Below are positions 23,549 through 39,722 of a stretch of 64,000 nt of DNA, in pieces; the first letter of the stretch is position 1; each line of letters begins with the position of its first letter. Location: assembly GCA_050873025.1 (NCBI GenBank), contig JBNMHZ010000015.1, positions 15 to 64,014 of the forward strand, given 5' to 3'. The stretch is from Faecalibacterium sp. (GTDB lineage Bacteria; Bacillota; Clostridia; Oscillospirales; Ruminococcaceae). The position numbers were made by a program, and so were the translations under genes. Below the pieces are notes generated by a model. That model was not told the DNA's origin. It saw only the letters and a program-made list of their open reading frames with translations, and made no database searches.

Positions 23549-24547
23549 GTGGAAGCTACCAAAAAATTGAATGGCAAGGCTGTGGGCAAGTGGCTCAGCA
23601 ACAACGCCATTATCGTGATGATGCTGGCCGTTTCGCTGGTGGTTGGCATTATGCACCCCAACTTCTTCTCCGGCACGAACCTCATCAACCTGTTCAAGAA
23701 CGTGTCCATCCGCTATATCATTGCACTGGGAATTTCCGGCTGTCTGATCACCACCGGCAACGACCTGTCCGCAGGTCGTCTGGCTGGCTTTGCAGCCTGC
23801 CTGGCCTGCATCTTTGCGCAGACGGAAGGCGCATCCGGCAAGTTCTATGCCAATATGCCCACCCTGCCTACCCCCGTGGTGTTCCTGCTGGTCATTGCCA
23901 TCTGCGCCATCGTGGGCCTGTGCAACGGTCTGGTGGTCAGCTACCTGAAGGTGCAGCCCTTTATTGCTACGCTGGGTATGCAGCAGGTGGTTTACGGTAT
24001 CTGCCTGGTGTACACCGGTGGTACCCCCATCGGCTCCCTGAACAAGAACTTCACCTCTCTGGCATCCAACACCATTCTGGCCATCCCCGTGCTGATCTGG
24101 ATCGCACTGGTGGTTGCAGTGTGCTTCTGGTTCCTGTACAACAAGACCCGCCACGGCAAGTATATGTACGCCATCGGCGGCAACGAAGCTGCTGCTGAGG
24201 TGGCCGGCGTCAACGTGGCTGCTACCAAGATCCGCATCTACATCCTGGCTTCCTGCATGTTCGGTCTGGCAGGCTGCCTGCTGGCTGCAAAGTCCGGCGG
24301 CGCATCTGTCAACACTGCACAGGGCTATGAGCTGGACGCCATCGCAGCCTGCACCATCGGCGGTGTTTCCACCACTGGCGGCGTCGGCACCGTGCCCGGC
24401 GTTCTGGTTGGTGTTCTGGTCTTTGAGCTGATGAAGGTGGCGCTGCAGTTCATGAACGTGAACTCTTCTTACACCTACATCGTCCAGGGCCTGGTCATCA
24501 TCGTGGCTGTGGCTATCGATATCCGCAAGTATCTGGCAAAGAAGTAA
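23549..24547 (+). CDS. mglC: Sugar ABC transporter permease (MglC-like)
   Basis: 332 aa, about 9 TM segments. GTG start 9 nt after AAGGAGG. A branched-chain/monosaccharide permease family pattern is present (IGGNEAAAEVAGVNV). Confidence 0.88.
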   Translation: MEATKKLNGKAVGKWLSNNAIIVMMLAVSLVVGIMHPNFFSGTNLINLFKNVSIRYIIALGISGCLITTGNDLSAGRLAGFAACLACIFAQTEGASGKFYANMPTLPTPVVFLLVIAICAIVGLCNGLVVSYLKVQPFIATLGMQQVVYGICLVYTGGTPIGSLNKNFTSLASNTILAIPVLIWIALVVAVCFWFLYNKTRHGKYMYAIGGNEAAAEVAGVNVAATKIRIYILASCMFGLAGCLLAAKSGGASVNTAQGYELDAIAACTIGGVSTTGGVGTVPGVLVGVLVFELMKVALQFMNVNSSYTYIVQGLVIIVAVAIDIRKYLAKK

Positions 24548-24559
24548 GACCTCTTTCCG

Positions 24560-24598
24560 GTGGGCTGCCTGCTGTATGGTGGGCGGCCCACTTTTTTT
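24560..24598 (+). terminator. Rho-independent terminator after mglC
   Basis: Hairpin GTGGGCTGCC-loop-GGCGGCCCAC followed by T7. Confidence 0.7.
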
Positions 24599-24650
24599 GT
24601 TTATATTTGTGTGGTATCATAAAAGAAAACACCATCAGGAGGGGGATACC

Positions 24651-24971
24651 ATGGCACAGGAAAAACAGACGCAGGAAGAACGCGAGGCAGAGCTGGCCCG
24701 GCGTGAAGCGGTTCTTGCCGCCCGGGAAGCCCAGCTTGCGCAGGAGCAGGCAGAGCTGGCCGGACAGAAGGCCGACTTTGAAGAGGGTAAGAAGAGCCTG
24801 CTTGACAACGGCGACAAGAATTTTGTGAACCCGAAGGAGAAAATTTACGATAAATTTCCGCTGACGGTGCACCAGATGGATATCATCATCGGGGTGCTGT
24901 TTGCACTGATCGCGCTGTTCCTTGTGCTGGGTGTGACCCATACCAGCTTCTTCGGGCTGTTTGGAGGGTGA
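24651..24971 (+). CDS. Hypothetical coiled-coil protein with a C-terminal TM helix
   Basis: The ATG at 24651 follows AGGAGGGGG. 106 aa. The Glu/Ala/Gln-rich N-terminal half (EEREAELARREAVLAAREAQLAQEQAELAG) is followed by the hydrophobic IIIGVLFALIALFLVLGV. Confidence 0.55.
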   Translation: MAQEKQTQEEREAELARREAVLAAREAQLAQEQAELAGQKADFEEGKKSLLDNGDKNFVNPKEKIYDKFPLTVHQMDIIIGVLFALIALFLVLGVTHTSFFGLFGG

Positions 24972-24988
24972 ACTGCCCGCTTCACCTG

Positions 24989-25035
24989 ACGATTGAAAAT
25001 GTCCTCCGCTGACGCTCTGGACATATTATAGGAAC
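24989..25035 (+). repeat. R1 repeat, copy d
   Basis: gacgattgaaaatgtcctccgctgacgctctgg. It lies 18 nt downstream of the stop at 24971, in sense orientation. Confidence 0.7.
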
Positions 25036-25044
25036 TTTATTTTA

Positions 25045-25090
25045 ACAGTGCACCAGAAAAATCTGTGGATTTTTCTGGTGCACTGTTTCA
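25045..25090 (+). terminator. Rho-independent terminator
   Basis: 19-bp hairpin ACAGTGCACCAGAAAAATC-tgtg-GATTTTTCTGGTGCACTGT followed by TT. Confidence 0.7.
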
Positions 25091-25209
25091 CTGAAAGGGT
25101 CGGAAAGGTCAACATCGGGATGCAGTGAGGCGGTTTATTTCGGGATATATATTTGTTCGTGGAGCGGGCTGTATCTGCTTTTTCTTTACCGCCGATTTGC
25201 GGGAAGTGA

Positions 25210-25238
25210 TTGCATTTCATCTGCAATGTGTTTATAAT
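25210..25238 (+). promoter_or_regulatory. Putative sigma-A promoter of the TAXI-gltS operon
   Basis: TTGCAT, 17 nt, TATAAT, about 45 nt upstream of the start. Confidence 0.5.
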
Positions 25239-25280
25239 TTACCATGAAAACTCTGCCGCACTGCGGCGGCAGGAAGAGGA

Positions 25281-26267
25281 GTGGTAATTTTGAAAAAGAA
25301 ATGGATCGCAGCGGCGCTGGCCGGGGCTTTGCTGGCAGCGGTGCTGCTGAGCGGGTGCGCATCGGCCAAGGTTGTCAAGCGGCTGCGCTTTGGTGTGGCT
25401 GGTGAAGGCGGTGTTTACCGGGAGTTTGGCGAACTGTTTGCTGCGCTGCAGAACGAGACAGACAATGGAACCGTTGAGCTGAAAGCCACCGCCGGTTCGG
25501 CGGCGAACCTGCGCCTGCTGACCGGCGAATACCTGCAGCTGGCCATTGCGCAGGCTGACCTTGTCCAGGACGCCTATAACCAGACCGGCATCTTCAAGGA
25601 TGAAGAGGAGACCCGTGGCTTTGGTGCCGTGGCGGCGCTGTACACCGAGACCTGTCAGGTGGTGGTGCGGGTGGACTCCGGCATTGAAACGGTGGAGGAC
25701 CTGCAGGGCAAAACCGTGAGCATCGGCGCGGAGGAATCCGGCTCGGAGCAGAATGCAAAGGAGATCTTGGCAGCTTATGGTCTGAATGAAAAGATGGTGG
25801 ACATGGTGAACCTGAACTATGAGGATGCCGCCGCCCAGCTGAAAGCGGGGAAGGTGGACGCCATCTTTATGACGGTGGGCGCGCCCAGCCCGGTGCTGAC
25901 CGAGCTGGCGGGCGAGTGCGGCATCCGTCTGCTGAATGTGGACGGTGCGGCAGCACAGCGCTTACAGAGCGCTTACAGCGCCTACAGCGCGGTCACACTG
26001 CCAGCAGGCACCTATCCCGGCCAGACCGAAAACGTGCAGACTGTGGGCGTAAAAGCCGTTCTGCTGGCAAGTGACGAGCTGCCTGCAAAGCAGGTGCAGA
26101 GTTTGACGGAACTGCTGTTCACAAACCGGGAAGAGATGGCACAGCAGCTGGGCATTCCGCTGGATACGGAAAAAGACGCAGTAGAGGGCGTTGGCATCCC
26201 GTTCCATGCGGGTGCAGCCGCATACTACAAGGCGGCAGGAATTACGGTCGAGTCGGCCGGGAACTGA
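25281..26267 (+). CDS. TAXI-family (TRAP-associated) extracytoplasmic solute-binding lipoprotein
   Basis: 328 aa, starting at GTG 25281 or TTG 25290. Has the lipobox LLSGCAS and the TAXI signature RLRFGVAGEGGVYREFG. The remainder is family-like (VSIGAEESGSEQNA, FMTVGAPSPVL, IPFHAGAAAYY). Confidence 0.8.
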   Translation: MVILKKKWIAAALAGALLAAVLLSGCASAKVVKRLRFGVAGEGGVYREFGELFAALQNETDNGTVELKATAGSAANLRLLTGEYLQLAIAQADLVQDAYNQTGIFKDEEETRGFGAVAALYTETCQVVVRVDSGIETVEDLQGKTVSIGAEESGSEQNAKEILAAYGLNEKMVDMVNLNYEDAAAQLKAGKVDAIFMTVGAPSPVLTELAGECGIRLLNVDGAAAQRLQSAYSAYSAVTLPAGTYPGQTENVQTVGVKAVLLASDELPAKQVQSLTELLFTNREEMAQQLGIPLDTEKDAVEGVGIPFHAGAAAYYKAAGITVESAGN

Positions 26268-26280
26268 GGGAAAGTGAGCA

Positions 26281-27468
26281 ATGAAGATCGAATTGGATAT
26301 GTATCAGACACTGGCCATTGCGGTGCTGGTGCTGATGCTGGGCAAGTTTCTGCGGGCAAGGGTGCAGGTGCTGGAGCGCTTCTGCATCCCGGCACCCGTC
26401 ATTGGCGGCGTGCTGTTCGCCATTTTTACCTGTGTGTGCTACGTGACCGGCGTGGCCGAGTTTGCGTTTGACGATACCCTGAAAGAGGTCTGCATGGTGA
26501 TGTTCTTCACCTCGGTGGGCTTTCAGGCGAACCTCAAGGTGCTGAAAAGCGGCGGCAAGTCCATGATCGTATTTCTGGGCGTGGTGATCGTGCTGATCGT
26601 GAGCCAGAACTTTCTGGCTGTGGGGCTGGCAAAGCTGCTGGGCGTGGATGCTTTGGTGGGCCTTTGCACCGGCTCCATCCCCATGGTGGGCGGCCACGGC
26701 ACGGCCGGTGCTTTTGGCCCGGTGCTGGAGGATTTTGGCATTCAGGGTGCAACCACCCTGTGCACGGCAGCGGCCACCTACGGTCTGATTGCGGGCAGCA
26801 TGATGGGCGGCCCCCTTGGCAAAATGCTCATTGAGCGGCACAATCTGCTGGCCACCGTGGTGCCGGAGGATGACAGCCTGCTGGTGGAAGAAGAAATGAA
26901 GCACGAGCGCCACACCACCATGTACCCGGCAGCAAGTTTCCAGCTCATCATCGCAATGGGCATCGGCACGGTGCTCTCGAAGCTGCTGAGCCTGACGGGC
27001 ATGACCTTCCCCATCTACATCGGTGCCATGATCGCGGCGGCCATCATCCGCAATGTGGGTGAATACGGCGGCGGCTACACCGTGTATATGGGCGAGATCA
27101 ACGATATCGGCGGTATCTGCCTTTCGCTGTTCCTGGGCATGGCCATGATCACCCTGAAGCTGTGGCAGCTGGCCGAGCTGGCCCTGCCGCTGATCGTGCT
27201 GCTGGCAGGCCAGACGGTGTTTATGATGCTGTATGTGGTGCTGGTGGTGTTCAACATCATGGGCCGCGATTACGATGCAGCGGTCATCGTATCCGGCACC
27301 TGCGGCTTCGGCATGGGTGCAACCCCCAACGCTATGGCGAATATGCAGGCCATCTGCGATAAGTATTCGCCTTCGGTCAAGGCGTATCTGCTGATCCCGC
27401 TGGTGGGCAGCCTGTTTGCGGATTTCCTGAACAGTTTGGTCATTACCGTGTTCATCAATTTTATCTGA
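26281..27468 (+). CDS. gltS: Sodium/glutamate symporter GltS
   Basis: 395 aa, about 10-12 TM segments. The N-terminus (LDMYQTLAIAVLVLMLGKFLRARVQVLERFCIPAPVIGG) and the FGMGATPNAMANMQA motif are typical of GltS. Confidence 0.88.
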   Translation: MKIELDMYQTLAIAVLVLMLGKFLRARVQVLERFCIPAPVIGGVLFAIFTCVCYVTGVAEFAFDDTLKEVCMVMFFTSVGFQANLKVLKSGGKSMIVFLGVVIVLIVSQNFLAVGLAKLLGVDALVGLCTGSIPMVGGHGTAGAFGPVLEDFGIQGATTLCTAAATYGLIAGSMMGGPLGKMLIERHNLLATVVPEDDSLLVEEEMKHERHTTMYPAASFQLIIAMGIGTVLSKLLSLTGMTFPIYIGAMIAAAIIRNVGEYGGGYTVYMGEINDIGGICLSLFLGMAMITLKLWQLAELALPLIVLLAGQTVFMMLYVVLVVFNIMGRDYDAAVIVSGTCGFGMGATPNAMANMQAICDKYSPSVKAYLLIPLVGSLFADFLNSLVITVFINFI

Positions 27469-27523
27469 ATCTGATTGTTTGCAGTTCGGGCGGGGCTTCC
27501 GCACCGGGAAAGGAGACGTGCAA

Positions 27524-27739
27524 ATGTCGCTTCATCACCATCTGAAAATGTGGCTGCAGCAGAAGCTGTGGAAAAAGCAGGAGCATGACCATGCAGAAGA
27601 AACGGTGGCTGTGCCGGAGGTACATACCGGCAAGGTGGCACACCATACGGATGCAAACGGCACACCGGCAGCGGATAAGCCCATCCATTACGACAATGTG
27701 GCCATCCCGGAAGTGCACATCCACCCGAGACACAAATAA
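27524..27739 (+). CDS. Small His-rich hypothetical protein
   Basis: The ATG at 27524 follows AAAGGAG. 71 aa with 11 His and an internal duplicated motif (VAVPEVHTGK / VAIPEVHIHP). Confidence 0.4.
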   Translation: MSLHHHLKMWLQQKLWKKQEHDHAEETVAVPEVHTGKVAHHTDANGTPAADKPIHYDNVAIPEVHIHPRHK

Positions 27740-27755
27740 CTCCTATTGTGAAAAG

Positions 27756-27881
27756 GCGTTTGGAGCGGCCCTGCGGTTGCACAGCAATAAAAGCCCCAGT
27801 GGGGCTTTTAAGCAGGCGAGTGGTCTGCGTTAGCAGATGGAAGGGCTTTGCCCTGACAAACGTCGGGGCCGCTCCAAACGC
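27756..27881. repeat. 16-bp inverted repeat pair enclosing a small terminator hairpin
   Basis: GCGTTTGGAGCGGCCC (27756-27771) pairs with GGGCCGCTCCAAACGC (27866-27881). An inner hairpin AAAAGCCCC-agt-GGGGCTTTT lies at 27788-27809. Confidence 0.7.
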
Positions 27882-27894
27882 GAATAAAAAAGAA

Positions 27895-27945
27895 AGCTTC
27901 TACTGAAGATAGCCAGAGCGAATGCGGAGGCTATTTAAAATCGTA
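27895..27945 (-). repeat. R1 repeat, copy e
   Basis: The minus strand reads tacgattttaaatagcctccgcattcgctctgg. It is co-oriented with the NCS2 permease gene but lies beyond that gene's terminator. Confidence 0.7.
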
Positions 27946-27951
27946 GGCAGC

Positions 27952-27986
27952 AAAAAACTCCCGTCCGATAGGACGGGAGTTTTTTG
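27952..27986. terminator. Bidirectional Rho-independent terminator
   Basis: AAAAAACTCCCGTCC-gata-GGACGGGAGTTTTTT. Confidence 0.8.
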
Positions 27987-28010
27987 TTTTATGCGAAGGA
28001 ATAATAAATC

Positions 28011-29381
28011 TTAGAGGAACACGTACTTGAGGATGAACAGCACGGTCAGCACGTACATCAGGGGGCTGATCTTCTTCTCCTTGGCCTTGCCGGTGACCAC
28101 GTTGATGATGGTCCAGGAGATGACGCCGATGGCGATGCCCTCAGAGATGCTGTAAGCAGTGGGCATGGCCAGAATGGTGAGGAAAGCGGGGATGCCCTCG
28201 CTGGGGTCATTGAAGTCGATCTTAACGGCAGAACCCATCATGTAGAAGCCCACGATGATCAGGGCAGGAGCCGTTGCAAAAGAAGGAATGGTGAGGAACA
28301 GCGGGCTGAAGATGGTAGCCAGCAGGAACAGGATGCCGGTGGTCATGGCAGTCAGACCGGTGCGGCCGCCCTCGGTGACGCCGGAAGCGCTCTCCACGAA
28401 GGTGGTGGTGGTGGAAGTGCCCAGCACAGCGCCTGCGCAGGTGGCAATGGAGTCGGCCATCAGAGCGCCCTTGATGTGGGGCAGCTTGCCGTCCTCGTCC
28501 AGCATGTCGGCCTTGGAAGCAACACCGATCAGGGTGCCCAGGGTGTCGAACAGGTCAACGAACAGGAAGGAGAACATGACGGCGAAGAAGTTCAGGATGC
28601 CCACGCCGGAGAAATCGGTCTTGAACACCTGACCAAAGGTCTTGCCCAGTGCAGAGAAATCGAAGCTGACGAATGCGGTGGGGATGACCGAGTACATACC
28701 GGCATCGGGGTTCGGCACATAGATGCCGGTCAGCTCGCAGAGAATGCCCAGCACCCAGGTGATGAGGATGCCGTACAGGATGCCGCCCTTGACATGCTTG
28801 ACCAGCAGGATGGCAGTGATGACGATGCCCAGCAGAGCCAGGATGGCACCCACGCCCACGCTGGAGAAGGTCTCGCCCTTGAAGTGCTGGTAGGTGACCA
28901 GGGTGGAATCACTGTTGACGATCAGCTTTGCATTCTGCAGGCCGACGAAAGCAACGAACAGGCCGATGCCCACGCTGACGGCGCTCTTGAGGGTCATGGG
29001 GATGGCGTTGAAGATGCCCTCGCGGACATTAGTGAGGGACAGTACGATGAAGATGATGCCCTCCACAAAGACGGCCATCAGGGCCAGCTGCCAGCTATAG
29101 CCCATGGTGAGCACGACGGTGTAGGAGAAGTAGGCGTTCAGGCCCATGCCGGGAGCCAGTGCAAACGGATAGTTGGCAAGCAGTGCCATGAGGGCGGTGC
29201 CAACAAAGGATGCCAGTGCGGTGGCGATCAGAACAGCCTCAGAATCCATGCCGGAAGCGGACAGGATGTTGGGGTTGACCGCAAGGATGTAGGCCATGGT
29301 CATGAAGGTGGTGATACCAGCCATGATCTCGGTCTTAGCATCGGTGTGGTTTTCTTTCAGATGAAAGATGTTTTCTAACAT
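28011..29381 (-). CDS. NCS2-family purine (adenine/guanine/hypoxanthine) permease (AzgA/PbuG-like)
   Basis: 456 aa. The N-terminus FHLKENHTDAKTEIMAGITTFMTMAYILAVNP is typical. About 13 TM segments. An AGGAGG RBS is present. Confidence 0.88.
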   Translation of the reverse strand: MLENIFHLKENHTDAKTEIMAGITTFMTMAYILAVNPNILSASGMDSEAVLIATALASFVGTALMALLANYPFALAPGMGLNAYFSYTVVLTMGYSWQLALMAVFVEGIIFIVLSLTNVREGIFNAIPMTLKSAVSVGIGLFVAFVGLQNAKLIVNSDSTLVTYQHFKGETFSSVGVGAILALLGIVITAILLVKHVKGGILYGILITWVLGILCELTGIYVPNPDAGMYSVIPTAFVSFDFSALGKTFGQVFKTDFSGVGILNFFAVMFSFLFVDLFDTLGTLIGVASKADMLDEDGKLPHIKGALMADSIATCAGAVLGTSTTTTFVESASGVTEGGRTGLTAMTTGILFLLATIFSPLFLTIPSFATAPALIIVGFYMMGSAVKIDFNDPSEGIPAFLTILAMPTAYSISEGIAIGVISWTIINVVTGKAKEKKISPLMYVLTVLFILKYVFL

Positions 29382-29763
29382 GAAGAACCTCCTGATTTCA
29401 AATAAAATAACCCGCCAGTGGGAAACAGCGGGAAAGAACAGAACCTATTGTAGCATTTTTGGCTTGGGTTTGTCCACGGAATAAACACACTTTTTTCATT
29501 TTTTGTCCAAAATTGACGAATGAGTATGACTTTGAAGCTTTTCGGCGGGTTTGCCACAACTTTCCGGTGAGAAAAATGCAGGAATTTTGAGATGCGCGAT
29601 AATGCGCATTATTTTTTACAGTAAAAATATACAAAATGGAATTAATGCTGCGGAATGTACAGCTTGGCCCTGAAAAAGTACGCACTGTTGATGCGGCGTG
29701 GCAGGTGGTATCCTTTTGCCATAGCCCAGCACATCCGGGCGGAAAGGAGCTGGTACCCACATC

Positions 29764-33379: not shown

Positions 33380-33395
33380 AAAGGAGGTGAGAACG

Positions 33396-34361
33396 ATGAT
33401 GAAGGTCATTTACAGCGAAATGGATACTCCCGCAGGGATGAGCTGCCGTCTGGAAGCCGCCGGGCACGCAGGCTATGCGCCCGCCGGGCAGGACATCGTG
33501 TGCGCCGGTGCCAGCACCGTGATGCAGGGCCTTGTGTACCTGCTGGCCGGTGAGGAAAATGCCCACAGCGATGCCTTTGACGAGCCGGACGGCCCGCGTG
33601 TGGCCGTGCAGGCGGATGCACCCTGCGAGGACTGGGTACGCGGTGCTTTTGAGCTGGCCAAAGCGGCTTTTGCCCTGCTGGCCGAGCGCTACCCGGAGAA
33701 CGTCCGCTTTGCGGATGTGAGCCAGAGAGGAAAGGAGAGCATGATGGACCTGCAGATGTTTGCCAGTGAAGGCGGTGATGCCGCACCTGCGGCCCCGGCT
33801 CTGAGCGAGGCCCAGGCCCGGCAGGCGGTGGCTTCCGGCACCATGAAGCCCGGCGAAGCCGGAGCATCTGCGGTTCCTGCCGCACCGGCGGCAGAACCGG
33901 CAGAAGTGCAGCCGGAAAAGCCGCAGCCGCAGCTTCCCCCGCAGTGCCCGAAGCAGAACCTGCCGCCGCTGCCCAGCTTTGCCCGGACGGCACAGTCTGC
34001 CGTGCACAGCCTGCACGCCCGCTGGGCCGCAGAGGAAGCGGCTATGCGCCGCAGCCAGCCGGGCTTTAACCTGCAGCAGGAGCTGCGCTGCCCGGAAATG
34101 CGCCGTCTGATGCAGCTGCCCGGCATGAAGGTGCAGGATGCTTACCGTCTGGCCCACTACGACGAAAACCTGCGCAGCGCTGCCCAGGCGGTGGAGCAGG
34201 GCGTGGTGGAGCGCATCCAGCAGCGGGCTGCACGCCCCACCGAAAACGGCATCCGGCCCGGCGGCGCGGCTACCGTGCGTCCGGATGTGGCCAGCATGAC
34301 CCGCGCCCAGCGCGAAGCACTGGAACGCCGTGTGCTCCACGGGGCACAGATCGAATTGTAA
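33396..34361 (+). CDS. Prp-like cysteine protease fused in frame to a scaffolding protein
   Basis: The N-terminal ~110 aa carries the Prp catalytic pattern (EAAGHAGYAPAGQDIVCAGAST). An internal GAAAGGAGAG RBS precedes ATGATG at 33741, beginning MMDLQMFASEGG (Prp cleavage-type motif). This is followed by an Ala/Pro/Gln-rich helical scaffold-like region. Confidence 0.7.
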   Translation: MMKVIYSEMDTPAGMSCRLEAAGHAGYAPAGQDIVCAGASTVMQGLVYLLAGEENAHSDAFDEPDGPRVAVQADAPCEDWVRGAFELAKAAFALLAERYPENVRFADVSQRGKESMMDLQMFASEGGDAAPAAPALSEAQARQAVASGTMKPGEAGASAVPAAPAAEPAEVQPEKPQPQLPPQCPKQNLPPLPSFARTAQSAVHSLHARWAAEEAAMRRSQPGFNLQQELRCPEMRRLMQLPGMKVQDAYRLAHYDENLRSAAQAVEQGVVERIQQRAARPTENGIRPGGAATVRPDVASMTRAQREALERRVLHGAQIEL

Positions 34362-34386
34362 CGACATAAGAGAAAGGAAACCGACT

Positions 34387-35397
34387 ATGAACCACGATTT
34401 CAACGATTTTAACATTCAGCTGTTCGCCGAGAACCTGCAGAATACCACTGCCACCATGTCGCCGGAGATGAAGACTTTCTACGAGAAGCGTCTCATCGAC
34501 CAGGCAGAGCCGCGCCTGGTGCACGACCAGTTTGCGGATTACTATCCCGTTCCCCAGAACGGCGGCAAGACCATCGAGTTCCGCAAGTACGACAGCCTGC
34601 CCAAGGCGGTCACTCCGCTGACCGAGGGCGTGACCCCGGACGGCCAGGCCCTGAACGTGACCACCATCACCAGCGACCTGCACCAGTACGGCGGCTGGAC
34701 CCCGCTGACTGATGTGCTGCAGATGACCGCCATCGACAACAATGTGGTGCAGGCCACCCGCGTGCTGGCAAGCCAGGCGGGCCGCACCATGGACAGCATC
34801 ACCCGCGATGTGCTGGCTGGCGGCACCAATGTGATCTATGCACCCAAGATCGGCACCGACGGCACCGAGACTGCAGTTGCCAGCCGCAAGGCGCTGGACA
34901 AGACCTGCACCCTGACCCCGAAGCTGTTCTTCCAGGCGGCGGCGCAGCTGGGTGCCATGAACGCAGACCCCATCGGTGACAGCTACATTGCCATCATCCA
35001 CCCCTATGCCGCCTACGACCTGAAGACCAGCAAGGAATTCATTGAGGTGCACAAGTACGCCGACCCGGAGACCATGTTCCGCGGCGAGATCGGCAAGCTG
35101 GGCAACATCCGCTTCATTGAGACCAGCGAAGCCAAGATCTGGAAGGATTCTACCTGTCCGGACGGTCTGGCGGTGTTCGGTACGCTGGTGCTGGGTGCCC
35201 ATGCCTACGGCGTCACCGAGCTGGAAGGCGGCGGCCTGGAACACATCGTCAAGCAGCTGGGCTACGGCGATGACCCGCTGAACCAGCGTGCTTCCGTGGG
35301 CTGGAAGGGGATGCGTGCGGCCGAGCGTCTGGTAGAGCAGTATATGGTGCGCATTGAGAGTGCGTCCAGCTATTCTGCCACCGCGGCCGCAAATTAA
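34387..35397 (+). CDS. Major capsid protein (HK97-fold type; resembles the N4-gp56-like family)
   Basis: 336 aa. The N-terminal propeptide has NIQLFAEN (LQxF|A motif). The position after the scaffold, the size, and conserved blocks (GGKTIEFRKYDSL, LTEGVTPDG, AIIHPYAAYDL, GNIRFIETSEAK) support the call. Confidence 0.75.
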   Translation: MNHDFNDFNIQLFAENLQNTTATMSPEMKTFYEKRLIDQAEPRLVHDQFADYYPVPQNGGKTIEFRKYDSLPKAVTPLTEGVTPDGQALNVTTITSDLHQYGGWTPLTDVLQMTAIDNNVVQATRVLASQAGRTMDSITRDVLAGGTNVIYAPKIGTDGTETAVASRKALDKTCTLTPKLFFQAAAQLGAMNADPIGDSYIAIIHPYAAYDLKTSKEFIEVHKYADPETMFRGEIGKLGNIRFIETSEAKIWKDSTCPDGLAVFGTLVLGAHAYGVTELEGGGLEHIVKQLGYGDDPLNQRASVGWKGMRAAERLVEQYMVRIESASSYSATAAAN

Positions 35398-38363: not shown

Positions 38364-39722
38364 ATGGCAAACAAAAAGAAACAGGACGATGTGCTTGCCG
38401 CTGTACAGGCACAGACCGAAGGCGGCCAGCCCGCCGTACAGAGCAGTTATTCTGCTGCAGGGCTGGGCAGCCGGTCGGATGTGGAAAACGCACTGGCAAA
38501 TGCCAGTTACAAGCCCAGCCAGACCGTGACCGATGCGGCCGATGCCCTGAAGGAATGGCAGGCGAACCGCCCGGGTGACTACCAGAGCAGCTATCAGGAG
38601 CGGATCGACCAGCTTTTGAACCAGCTGCTGCAGCGCAATACGTTCCAGTACAGCTACACCAGAGACCCTCTCTACCGCCAGTACGAGCAGAACTATCTGC
38701 AGAATGCCTACAATGCCAGCGCGGACGCTGCAGCGCAGGCAGCAGCCCTTACCGGCGGCTACGGCTCCAGCTATGCTGCCAGTGTTGCCCAGCAGGCTTA
38801 CCAGCAGCAGATCGGTGCACTGAGCAATGCGATCCCCACGCTGTACAGCCTGGCGCTGGATACTTACACCAGCGGCGGCAACGAGCTGGTAAGCCAGCTG
38901 GACCAGCTGAACAGCAGTGAGCAGGACGCCCAGCAGCTGTATAACAATAAGCTCTCGGATTACTACACCCAGCTGCAGCAGAGGGGCGAAGCCTACAACA
39001 GCGCCTATGAACAGGATTACGGCCAGTATCAGGACTACCTGAGCCAGCTGGGAGCCCTGCACGATTACTACACTGCGCAGGAACAGCAGCAGGCGGCACA
39101 GCGCCAGCAGCGGTTCAACAACATCATGACGGCACTGGGCGTTCTGGGCGATGTGGTGCAGATCGCCCTCAGCGGCACTACCGGCATCGGTTCCATGATC
39201 AGCGGCCTGCTGAACACCGGCTATAATATCTACTCCGGCAACCGCCAGTATGAGGCAAGCCGTGCGGATGCCCAGTGGAACCAGCAGCTGCAGGAGCGGC
39301 AGTATCAGGACAGCCTCAACCAGCAGCGCTACGAAAATGAGGCCAGCGAACGCGAATATCAGGATAAACTCAACCAGCAGAAATTCAATAATGACGTCAC
39401 CAGCCAGAAGCTGAATATTGCGCTGGGCGAGTGGAACCTGAAAAAGTCCAGTGCCGCCCAGAAGGCAAGCCGGGCAGGCAGTGCAGCATCCAGCGGCAGC
39501 GACACGGGCAGTGCAGACGGCGCATCTGCCGGCACGGCCAGCCGCGCGGTGGGCAGCGCGACCCGCCTTGGAAGCGATACTTCCCGGAACGTTACGGTGC
39601 CCTATATGGCAATGCTGATGCGCAGCCAGGGCAGAAGCGATACCAGCATCAGCAGTGCACTGCGCAGAGAAGGCTATTCTGCAGCGGAGATCGCACAGAT
39701 CCTGCAGCAGATGAAGCGCTGA
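38364..39722 (+). CDS. Gln/Tyr/Asn/Ser-rich phage protein with a central hydrophobic segment (possible internal/ejection or tape-measure-like protein)
   Basis: 452 aa of low-complexity QQ/YY-rich helical sequence. It contains the hydrophobic IMTALGVLGDVVQIALSGTTGIGSMISGLL. Confidence 0.45.
   Translation: MANKKKQDDVLAAVQAQTEGGQPAVQSSYSAAGLGSRSDVENALANASYKPSQTVTDAADALKEWQANRPGDYQSSYQERIDQLLNQLLQRNTFQYSYTRDPLYRQYEQNYLQNAYNASADAAAQAAALTGGYGSSYAASVAQQAYQQQIGALSNAIPTLYSLALDTYTSGGNELVSQLDQLNSSEQDAQQLYNNKLSDYYTQLQQRGEAYNSAYEQDYGQYQDYLSQLGALHDYYTAQEQQQAAQRQQRFNNIMTALGVLGDVVQIALSGTTGIGSMISGLLNTGYNIYSGNRQYEASRADAQWNQQLQERQYQDSLNQQRYENEASEREYQDKLNQQKFNNDVTSQKLNIALGEWNLKKSSAAQKASRAGSAASSGSDTGSADGASAGTASRAVGSATRLGSDTSRNVTVPYMAMLMRSQGRSDTSISSALRREGYSAAEIAQILQQMKR

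Follow-up and report, generated by a model that had tools for sequence, protein, structure and literature searches.

The 64,000-nucleotide stretch analysed here (the window) comes from Faecalibacterium sp. (assembly GCA_050873025.1, contig JBNMHZ010000015.1, positions 15 to 64,014 of the forward strand). Between ~29.7 and 39.8 kb it holds an island of head genes, which we assign below to the gene transfer agent (GTA) FpGTA I. The island encodes, in this order, a TerS-like protein, TerL, a P22-type portal, a Prp-type protease domain joined in frame to a putative scaffold (the fusion), the major capsid protein and two small proteins, followed by a 627-residue nozzle-like protein and a 452-residue low-complexity protein (38364-39722). 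There is no integrase in the island, which is flanked by host genes on one side and by tRNA-His and tRNA-Arg on the other. The fusion gene, placed between the portal and capsid genes, is the subject of this work. Its parts and those of the capsid gene are as follows (open reading frame, ORF; the apostrophe marks the scissile bond here and below).

33381..33389, forward strand: Shine-Dalgarno sequence AAGGAGGTG of the fusion gene, read in the sequence; duplex with the anti-Shine-Dalgarno -13.1 kcal/mol
33396..34361, forward strand: Prp-scaffold fusion gene, 321 residues plus stop, from the ORF and its translation
33396..33719, forward strand: Prp-family (MEROPS C108) cysteine protease domain, residues 1-108, from Pfam, profile alignment, AlphaFold2 (AF2) and Foldseek
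33465-33467 and 33501-33503, forward strand: codons of the catalytic His24 and Cys36, respectively, in the fusion ORF
33720..33740, forward strand: linker SQRGKES, whose DNA holds the Shine-Dalgarno-like GAAAGGAGAG (33730-33739)
33741..33764, forward strand: predicted Prp cleavage site MMDLQMF'A, residues 116-123, matching the motif of ribosomal protein L27
33759-33761 and 33762-33764: codons of Phe122 and Ala123, which form the predicted scissile bond
33741: proposed internal start ATG, the ATGATG spanning 33741-33746
33765..33980, forward strand: low-complexity scaffold linker rich in Ala, Pro, Glu and Gln, residues 124-195
33981..34358, forward strand: C-terminal domain (residues 196-321), helical and conserved, presumed to be the capsid-binding part of the scaffold
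34387..35397, forward strand: major capsid protein, N4-gp56 family (TIGR04387, 316 bits; phrog_1357)
34387-34425, forward strand: predicted 13-residue propeptide MNHDFNDFNIQLF of the capsid protein, cut before Ala14

A preliminary description of this stretch had noted a Prp-like N-terminal domain with a His/Cys dyad context, a frame that stays open into a scaffold-like region, a ribosome-binding-site-like sequence followed by ATGATG, and LQxF'A-type motifs at the joint and on the capsid. All of these are borne out. The dyad context is GHAGYAPAGQDIVCAGAS, with His24 and Cys36, and the domain scores above the Pfam cut-off; the first in-frame stop codon of the fusion ORF appears only at 34359; GAAAGGAGAG precedes the ATGATG, and the peptide at the junction reads MMDLQMFASEGG; and the LQMF'A of the joint has its counterpart in the MNHDFNDFNIQLF that precedes Ala14 of the capsid protein.

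The assignment of the N-terminal domain to the Prp family draws on several independent comparisons. Residues 13-103 match Pfam PF04327 (Peptidase_Prp), the whole protein scoring 42.7 bits and the domain alone 46 bits (cut-off 27 bits), and the domain also matches phrog_4478, annotated as 'peptidase' (E 3e-10). No protease family other than C108 Prp was matched by the fusion protein. In a profile of 16 diverse fusions, GHAGYAPAGQDIVCAGAS aligns over GHADHGEYGHDIVCAGAS of the Staphylococcus aureus enzyme (SaPrp; 4PEO/7KLD), which places Cys36 on the catalytic Cys34 of SaPrp, the position that is Ser in the 7JVS mutant. Six residues, G23, H24, G31, D33, C36 and S40, are invariant in the 16 fusions and correspond to SaPrp G21, H22, G29, D31, C34 and S38, with His and Cys 12 residues apart. 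In SaPrp these positions comprise the dyad, the loop hinges and residues that inactivate the enzyme when mutated (PMC9405229). The AF2 model reaches a predicted local distance difference test (pLDDT) of 75-91 for residues 1-110, the flexible loop 27-31 excepted, and the top Foldseek matches are SMU.848, SaPrp (7KLD/7JVS/4PEO) and TM1457, all with probability 1.0 and target template modelling scores of 0.72-0.82. Across five syntenic species the ratio of nonsynonymous to synonymous substitution rates (dN/dS) of the domain is 0.16. Taken together, the Prp domain is apparently active.

NCBI databases name this protein after the ribosomal enzyme. The NCBIfam equivalogs for ribosomal Prp (PRK14553), however, score it at 13-30 bits (best 29.6), against cut-offs of 133-225. 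By homology and predicted fold, the fusion N-terminus is a genuine member of the Prp family, but not the ribosomal enzyme of its NCBI name, because the equivalog score is low, the gene lies between portal and capsid, rplU and rpmA are directly adjacent to each other in the genome, and the L27 is short.

The second line of evidence comes from the motif at the joint and on the capsid. The junction site lies ~15 residues past the protease fold, and the capsid site occupies residues 8-14. Relatives provided 62 junctions and 59 capsid N-termini, all distinct, in which we counted the residues at each position.

P7: junction Met in 62/62; capsid variable
P6: junction M/V/I/L; capsid F/L/M/I
P5: junction D/N (E once); capsid N/D
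P4: junction Leu in 62/62; capsid L/I
P3: junction Gln in 62/62; capsid Gln in 59/59
P2: junction L/M; capsid L/M/F/R/Y
P1: junction Phe in 62/62; capsid Phe in 59/59
P1': junction Ala in 60/62; capsid Ala in 59/59

Every one of the 59 distinct orthologous capsid N-termini fits x[ND][LI]QxF'A. The L27 motif is MLxx(D/N)LQ(F/L)F'A, in which structural roles have been described for the P1 Phe, the P3 Gln, the hydrophobic P4 and P6 residues and a small P1' residue (PMC9405229); both the junction and the capsid sites fit this motif and its subsite roles. Within the island, the relaxed pattern [LIVMA]Q.F[AGS] occurs in 2/9 proteins, namely the fusion and the capsid protein. Scanning all 3.27 Mb of the genome in six frames for [DN]LQxF[AS] returned eight matches, four of them in two phage-type head modules, two internal to other long frames and two in non-coding frames. 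The placement of these predicted sites on the fusion and the capsid protein exceeds chance. The scan was also considered as a source of other cellular Prp substrates, which we reject: the two further matches in real genes are both internal and probably due to chance, and the apparent N-terminal motifs on contigs C8 and C30 lie in non-coding frames.

Some fusions carry the site twice. In those of 357-364 residues (loci L004-L008, L020, L044, L045, L065, L067 and L071), two sites lie ~47 residues apart, in the sequence MMDLQLF'AAEATAA...SRNPWGxFMLQLF'AEGE. Cutting at both would release a conserved peptide of ~47 residues. The tandem arrangement is hard to explain unless cutting occurs. Upstream of the junction site, the linker is conserved as well, with P12 Arg, P11 Gly and P10 Glu largely kept, while the equivalent capsid positions show no such constraint. 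That the P7 Met is invariant fits neither a conserved Shine-Dalgarno sequence nor the known subsite preferences of Prp. Together with the Arg, Gly and Glu of P12-P10, it could reflect a weak initiation or a requirement of cleavage in cis.

The remainder of the fusion protein consists of two regions. The scaffold linker varies in length in the alignment (dN/dS 0.27) and is mostly modelled by AF2 with low confidence, the segments 112-134 and 156-192 having a pLDDT below 50. The C-terminal domain contains helices at residues 193-220 and 255-279 with a pLDDT of 80-88, and the alignment of the fusions reveals an invariant block, VEQGV..RI.QR..RP.ENG. This part matches phrog_13908 (E 1e-19) and also phrog_35275 and phrog_14606, all of them families of unknown function. 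A DUF4355-type scaffold, which the preliminary description had suggested, was not recovered: residues 116-321 have no match to DUF4355 or any other Pfam scaffold family even at E<=1, noise aside, and their relatives are families of the phrog_13908 type. Foldseek likewise returned Prp-type matches only, all on the N-terminal domain and none for the scaffold part. The capsid protein, with a dN/dS of 0.08, follows directly.

The preliminary description had treated the element as an ordinary phage, a view that we could not uphold. Four other complete Faecalibacterium genomes, all of other species, keep this gene order at the same site of the chromosome and next to the same tRNAs, with interspecies identities of 92-95% for the capsid and 59-71% for the fusion protein. 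Our fusion is 71% identical to that of ATCC 27768 (locus L074), whose product is identical to RCH50850.1. This protein belongs to FpGTA I, a 10.5-kb operon of ten genes described in each of the twelve Faecalibacterium genomes studied, which gives rise to particles of ~40 nm that package ~8.5-9 kb of DNA (PMC12946183, Nat Commun 2026). Gene order, chromosomal site and the identity of the ATCC 27768 orthologue to RCH50850.1 show that the two are the same element. Judged by this synteny, the island is the vertically inherited GTA operon FpGTA I and not an ordinary phage.

The published particles also bear on the fusion protein itself. In caesium chloride-purified preparations, RCH50850.1 was detected through 14 peptides that cover 52.6% of it and through 103 spectra, next to 1226 spectra for the capsid and 1321 for the portal protein, and its function was given as "Unknown" (PMC12946183 Table S2). 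The main text lists 'head scaffolding' among the predicted FpGTA I products, and "protease", "Prp" and cleavage motifs have 0 occurrences there (PMC12946183). The coverage corresponds to 162 residues, more than the ~132 obtainable from the scaffold part, barring a 54-residue peptide. Because the coverage exceeds what the scaffold part yields, peptides of the Prp domain are probably present in the particle preparations, as far as summary coverage numbers allow this to be read.

The 452-residue protein at the end of the island (38364-39722) also has a counterpart in these particles, probably RCH50844.1 ('TolA') of ATCC 27766, judging by operon position. RCH50844.1 is the third most abundant protein of the purified FpGTA particles, with 914 spectra, and the table assigns it no function (PMC12946183).

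That the island supplies its own Prp had been proposed in the preliminary description, and the genomic background supports this more strongly than anticipated, as the host genus has neither a Prp nor a long L27. The 99.99%-complete genome from which the window derives contains two Prp matches, and both are Prp-scaffold fusions. On its contig C28 (locus L003, 1163-1749), rplU is directly followed by rpmA with no prp between them, and L27 starts MAHKKGVGSTKNGRDS. The same start, MAHKKG, was found in 20/20 Faecalibacterium genomes examined (our own and 19 further ones). About two thirds of the sampled sister genera of the same family carry a canonical prp of ~103-112 residues and about a third have no Prp match; at the sister-genus loci that we inspected, prp lies directly upstream of a gene for a long L27, e.g. 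MLRISMQFF'AHKKG. The predicted Prp of the island is hence the only Prp available. Because the host genome has no prp apart from the fusions, the element, unlike phage 80alpha, has no cellular enzyme to draw on.

The architecture is widespread. A first protein search returned >3800 matches, with lengths of 311-491 and mostly 315-319 residues among the matches listed, and a search with the fusion profile found >7000 database proteins at E<=1e-5. In IMG/VR, 41/41 full-length loci are fused without a stop codon and are 55-83% identical. Among contigs from one genome per species, 66/80 loci are fused, nearly all of them from Faecalibacterium, and 37/41 Faecalibacterium genomes have a Prp match, nearly always within an open frame of 310 residues or more. 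Near-identical fusions of the FpGTA type are also filed under Barnesiella, Oxalobacter or Bacteroides bins (L059, L060, L096 and L104); these contigs are most likely binning errors for Faecalibacterium.

In some related elements the two halves are separate genes. The preliminary description had suggested looking for a stop codon at the junction in related phages, and one separates the genes at loci L053-L056 and L124-L136, where a prp ORF of 92-138 residues is followed by a scaffold gene that bears the motif at its N-terminus, as in ...CDLQLF'GEGG and in MFENRKWHLQIF followed by 'AED. A tblastn search against cultured phages returned unannotated faecal contigs and two Oenococcus phages only. 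One cultured Oenococcus phage, Krappator149, has the split layout with the motif on both the scaffold (MLKNVSFYRSLLNLQRF followed by 'AESG) and the capsid (MKQFINLQRF'ADIS). In a maximum-likelihood tree of the Prp domain, the host enzymes of the family fall apart from the phage-borne ones (support 94/99), and the fused Prp domains form a single clade nested among the split phage forms, with 98% of bootstrap trees needing one change. Because the fused clade nests among split phage forms, the fusion most likely arose once, by the joining of adjacent prp and scaffold genes. A recent capture of a host prp was rejected on the separate grouping of host and phage-borne Prps in the same tree.

Based on these observations, we consider it probable that FpGTA I obtains its head-maturation protease from this gene, in a single polypeptide with the scaffolding protein. 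In this model, the Prp domain, probably as a dimer, would cut after Phe122, thereby parting from the scaffold and leaving a mature N-terminus ASEGG..., and would cut the capsid protein after Phe13, leaving a mature N-terminus AENLQ.... Through the fusion, the sole Prp of the cell would always be synthesised alongside its substrates, with which it probably co-assembles. The ancestor of the fusion would have had prp and scaffold as two genes, a layout that persists in related prophages. For ATCC 27766, the model predicts a scaffold neo-N-terminus AEGEAAPALSPEQTR, a Prp neo-C-terminus ...MMDLQLF in the peptide SGQQSMMDLQLF, and a capsid neo-N-terminus ADAQTNTTG... in the peptide ADAQTNTTGTMSVEMK; the uncut state would instead yield the junction-spanning peptide SGQQSMMDLQLFAEGEAAPALSPEQTR and capsid peptides containing MMNFNIQLF. 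These mature N-termini are checkable in existing proteomics data.

Several points speak against this assignment. We infer cleavage by the Prp of the fusion, at the junction and on the capsid, from the sequences, and the published proteomics consists of protein-level numbers. We likewise infer the scaffold role of the C-terminal domain from gene position, predicted helicity and the 'head scaffolding' product of FpGTA I, and the domain has no homology to a characterised scaffold. The low equivalog scores mean that the specificity could differ from that of cellular Prp. In the AF2 monomer the junction (residues 112-134) is disordered, with a pLDDT below 50, and is not docked in the active site; this is uninformative, because a monomer model lacks the dimer interface at which the substrate groove is located. 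Finally, 80alpha remains viable when its scaffold and capsid are not cleaved (PMC5744158), and by analogy cutting may not be an essential step in FpGTA either. The 80alpha procapsid already contains cut proteins (PMC5744158). A role of the fusion in delivering the protease into procapsids and in controlling stoichiometry, as the preliminary description had envisaged, would be plausible by analogy.

An addition to the protease-scaffold model is that ribosomes also start at ATG 33741 or 33744, which would produce free scaffold in excess and leave the protease on a minority of molecules. The two ATGs follow AGGAG at distances of 3 nt and 6 nt, and the duplex energy of -9.0 kcal/mol is stronger than that of the capsid gene (-5.9) and of control internal ATGs (mean about -4). 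In this lineage the Shine-Dalgarno sequence, written with AGA and GGA codons, beats synonymous resampling (P=0.045). The P7 Met, encoded by the ATG, is present in 62/62 junctions of the Faecalibacterium clade, while its neighbours vary and P7 of the capsid is permissive, and nested expression of a scaffold is a conserved strategy of herpesviruses (PMC11565193). Across 58 distinct junction DNAs, however, the mean duplex energy is -6.68 against a synonymous expectation of -6.56 (median P 0.57). The commonest human clade, which includes ATCC 27766 and 27768, the source of the purified particles, has no Shine-Dalgarno sequence at this place (-3.2), nor does the second fusion in our genome (GACAACACCGACGAC-ATG), and the distant fusions P0179, P0180, P0185 and P0202 have no Met at the joint. 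A nested transcript was considered too and rejected, since no promoter-like consensus match is present inside the fusion gene. Of the internal start put forward in the preliminary description, the strong Shine-Dalgarno sequence is thus real in this genome, whereas it is specific to a sub-lineage and the family as a whole shows no synonymous selection for it. Judged across the family, a nested start does not appear to belong to the conserved design, and we regard its use even here as rather unlikely.

A true alternative to the protease-scaffold model is that the Prp domain binds the LQxF leader as a chaperone or a reader of an assembly tag, without needing to cut, and that the fusion stays largely intact in procapsids. 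Such a role would agree with the viability of 80alpha mutants with uncleavable scaffold and capsid, a pre-cleaved scaffold not being tolerated (PMC5744158), with the chaperone role of Prp on ribosomal L27 that has been discussed (PMC9405229), and with the coverage arithmetic that suggests Prp-domain peptides in purified particle preparations. It does not account for the invariance of the catalytic His and Cys and of the oxyanion and loop residues in a domain under purifying selection, nor for the near-invariant small P1' Ala at both sites, which matters for catalysis and not for binding alone. The two tandem sites with their ~47-residue spacer, moreover, make sense only if they are cut. Binding without cutting therefore appears improbable to us.

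An artefact of assembly or sequencing, or a recent read-through of pseudogene type confined to this genome, can practically be discarded as the origin of the fusion. Nothing was found in favour of this idea: the same architecture recurs in >100 loci assembled independently and in thousands of proteins of isolates, metagenome-assembled genomes and viromes, the Prp domain is under purifying selection, and the orthologous protein has been detected by mass spectrometry; the fusion that the preliminary description had proposed is hence not a sequencing error.

Going beyond the protease-scaffold model, we tentatively suggest, at somewhat less than even chances, that C108 Prp constitutes an independently recruited class of capsid-maturation protease for HK97-fold capsids. 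Carried into the FpGTA procapsid as the N-terminal domain of every scaffold molecule, the enzyme would process the capsid protein from within and afterwards release itself by cutting its own tail, either in cis or within the dimer. If so, self-cleavage would require both the invariant P7 Met and the R-G-E linker, the Faecalibacterium GTA would be a self-sufficient maturation system in a Firmicute without Prp and long L27, and the whole would be a convergent counterpart of the protease-scaffold design of herpesviruses and lambda.

Protease-scaffold fusions are known from several tailed phages, namely lambda C/Nu3, P2 gpO and Mu gpI/gpZ. The herpesvirus UL26/UL26.5 is likewise a protease-scaffold with a nested scaffold (PMC11565193). 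FpGTA shares with these systems a single ORF with an N-terminal protease, a C-terminal scaffold and a cleavage site between them (predicted in FpGTA), as well as the position of the gene between the portal and capsid genes. In contrast, their proteases are serine proteases (ClpP/S49-like, or of the HK97/assemblin fold), whereas that of FpGTA is an unrelated C108 enzyme of ~108 residues, and the in-frame internal start that defines the nested systems does not appear to be conserved in FpGTA.

The closest precedent for the cleavage itself is Staphylococcus phage 80alpha, whose scaffold (gp46) and capsid (gp47) are cut by the host Prp at this motif (PMC5744158; PMC9405229). Both systems use the same protease family, carry a ..[ND]LQxF'A-type site on scaffold and major capsid protein, and have a short capsid propeptide of 13 residues in FpGTA and 13-14 in 80alpha. 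They differ in that 80alpha relies on the essential cellular Prp and encodes none, while FpGTA carries the enzyme in a host genus that has none; in that the leader of the FpGTA scaffold is the protease itself; and in that 80alpha is a siphovirus, whereas FpGTA is a podovirus-like GTA with an N4-gp56 capsid.

Phage-borne members of the family also exist outside fusions. In PMC12445089, which cites Martin et al. 1998, the protease of Streptococcus phage Cp-1 (orf13, MEROPS C108) is described as trimming the N-terminus of the major head protein and as essential for maturation. On this account it resembles the FpGTA enzyme as a Prp-family protease borne by a podovirus, and the gene product scores 18.5 bits on Pfam Prp. 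Unlike FpGTA, orf13 is free-standing (104 residues; Z47794 8805-9119) and not fused to a scaffold, and its cut removes 48 residues; in the sequence this would place it after ..ARINH and before Ala49, where the LQxF motif is absent. Free-standing phage Prps of the type found in phrog_4478, under the UniProt names 'YsxB-like protein' and 'Cysteine protease' of gut phages, and in Krappator149 share the lineage, the position after the portal gene and the motif on scaffold (..LLNLQRF'AESG) and capsid (MKQFINLQRF'ADIS), the difference being that enzyme and scaffold are separate genes. No experimental work on them turned up in the literature searched.

Our literature search, which reached older Prp and Cp-1 work through citing reviews, returned no account of a Prp-scaffold fusion or of free-standing phage Prp genes of this type, no protease function for the FpGTA gene and no mention of a host without Prp and long L27. 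Already known are the processing of 80alpha by Prp, the C108 protease of Cp-1, the free phage Prps, the other protease-scaffold fusions and FpGTA I. What appears to be new is a Prp-type protease fused to a scaffold with its own predicted site at the joint, and with it a proposed function for the FpGTA gene.

FpGTA is near-ubiquitous in Faecalibacterium, among the most abundant genera of the human gut, and was described only in 2026. The protease-scaffold assignment would fill a missing function of this element, whose maturation chemistry was not addressed in PMC12946183, and would mean that the strategy of lambda, P2, Mu and the herpesviruses arose anew with a cysteine protease of unrelated origin. 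On the host side, the Prp literature places prp and long L27 in every Firmicute, and a preprint of 2025, from the group that discovered Prp, states that all Firmicutes have prp. Faecalibacterium, with neither prp nor long L27, contradicts such claims, about a third of the sampled sister genera lack prp as well, and the absence bears on proposals of Prp as a narrow-spectrum antibiotic target. Thousands of Faecalibacterium database entries carry the misleading name "ribosomal-processing cysteine protease Prp" and are head proteins of GTAs or prophages.

Directly beside the operon, the window positions 24500-29600, between the conserved upstream flank and the island, are absent from the syntenic loci L159 and L162 of two other species. 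According to the preliminary description this segment encodes a TAXI-type binding protein, GltS and a purine permease. By comparison with these two loci, it is an insertion or deletion.

The genome also contains a second podovirus-like, apparently complete prophage at ~112000-148100 of contig C2, with a tyrosine integrase (C2:146914-148086; Pfam PF00589) and a giant protein of 3578 residues (C2:116561-127297). Its nozzle-like protein is related to the 627-residue protein of the island, and its Prp-scaffold fusion (within locus L001, 133373-136648) has 474 residues and the two sites DDMNLQLF'A and GALDLQRF'A. The capsid protein of the prophage starts MSKKKLDLQMF'A. This prophage seems to be a free-living relative of FpGTA I's ancestral phage.

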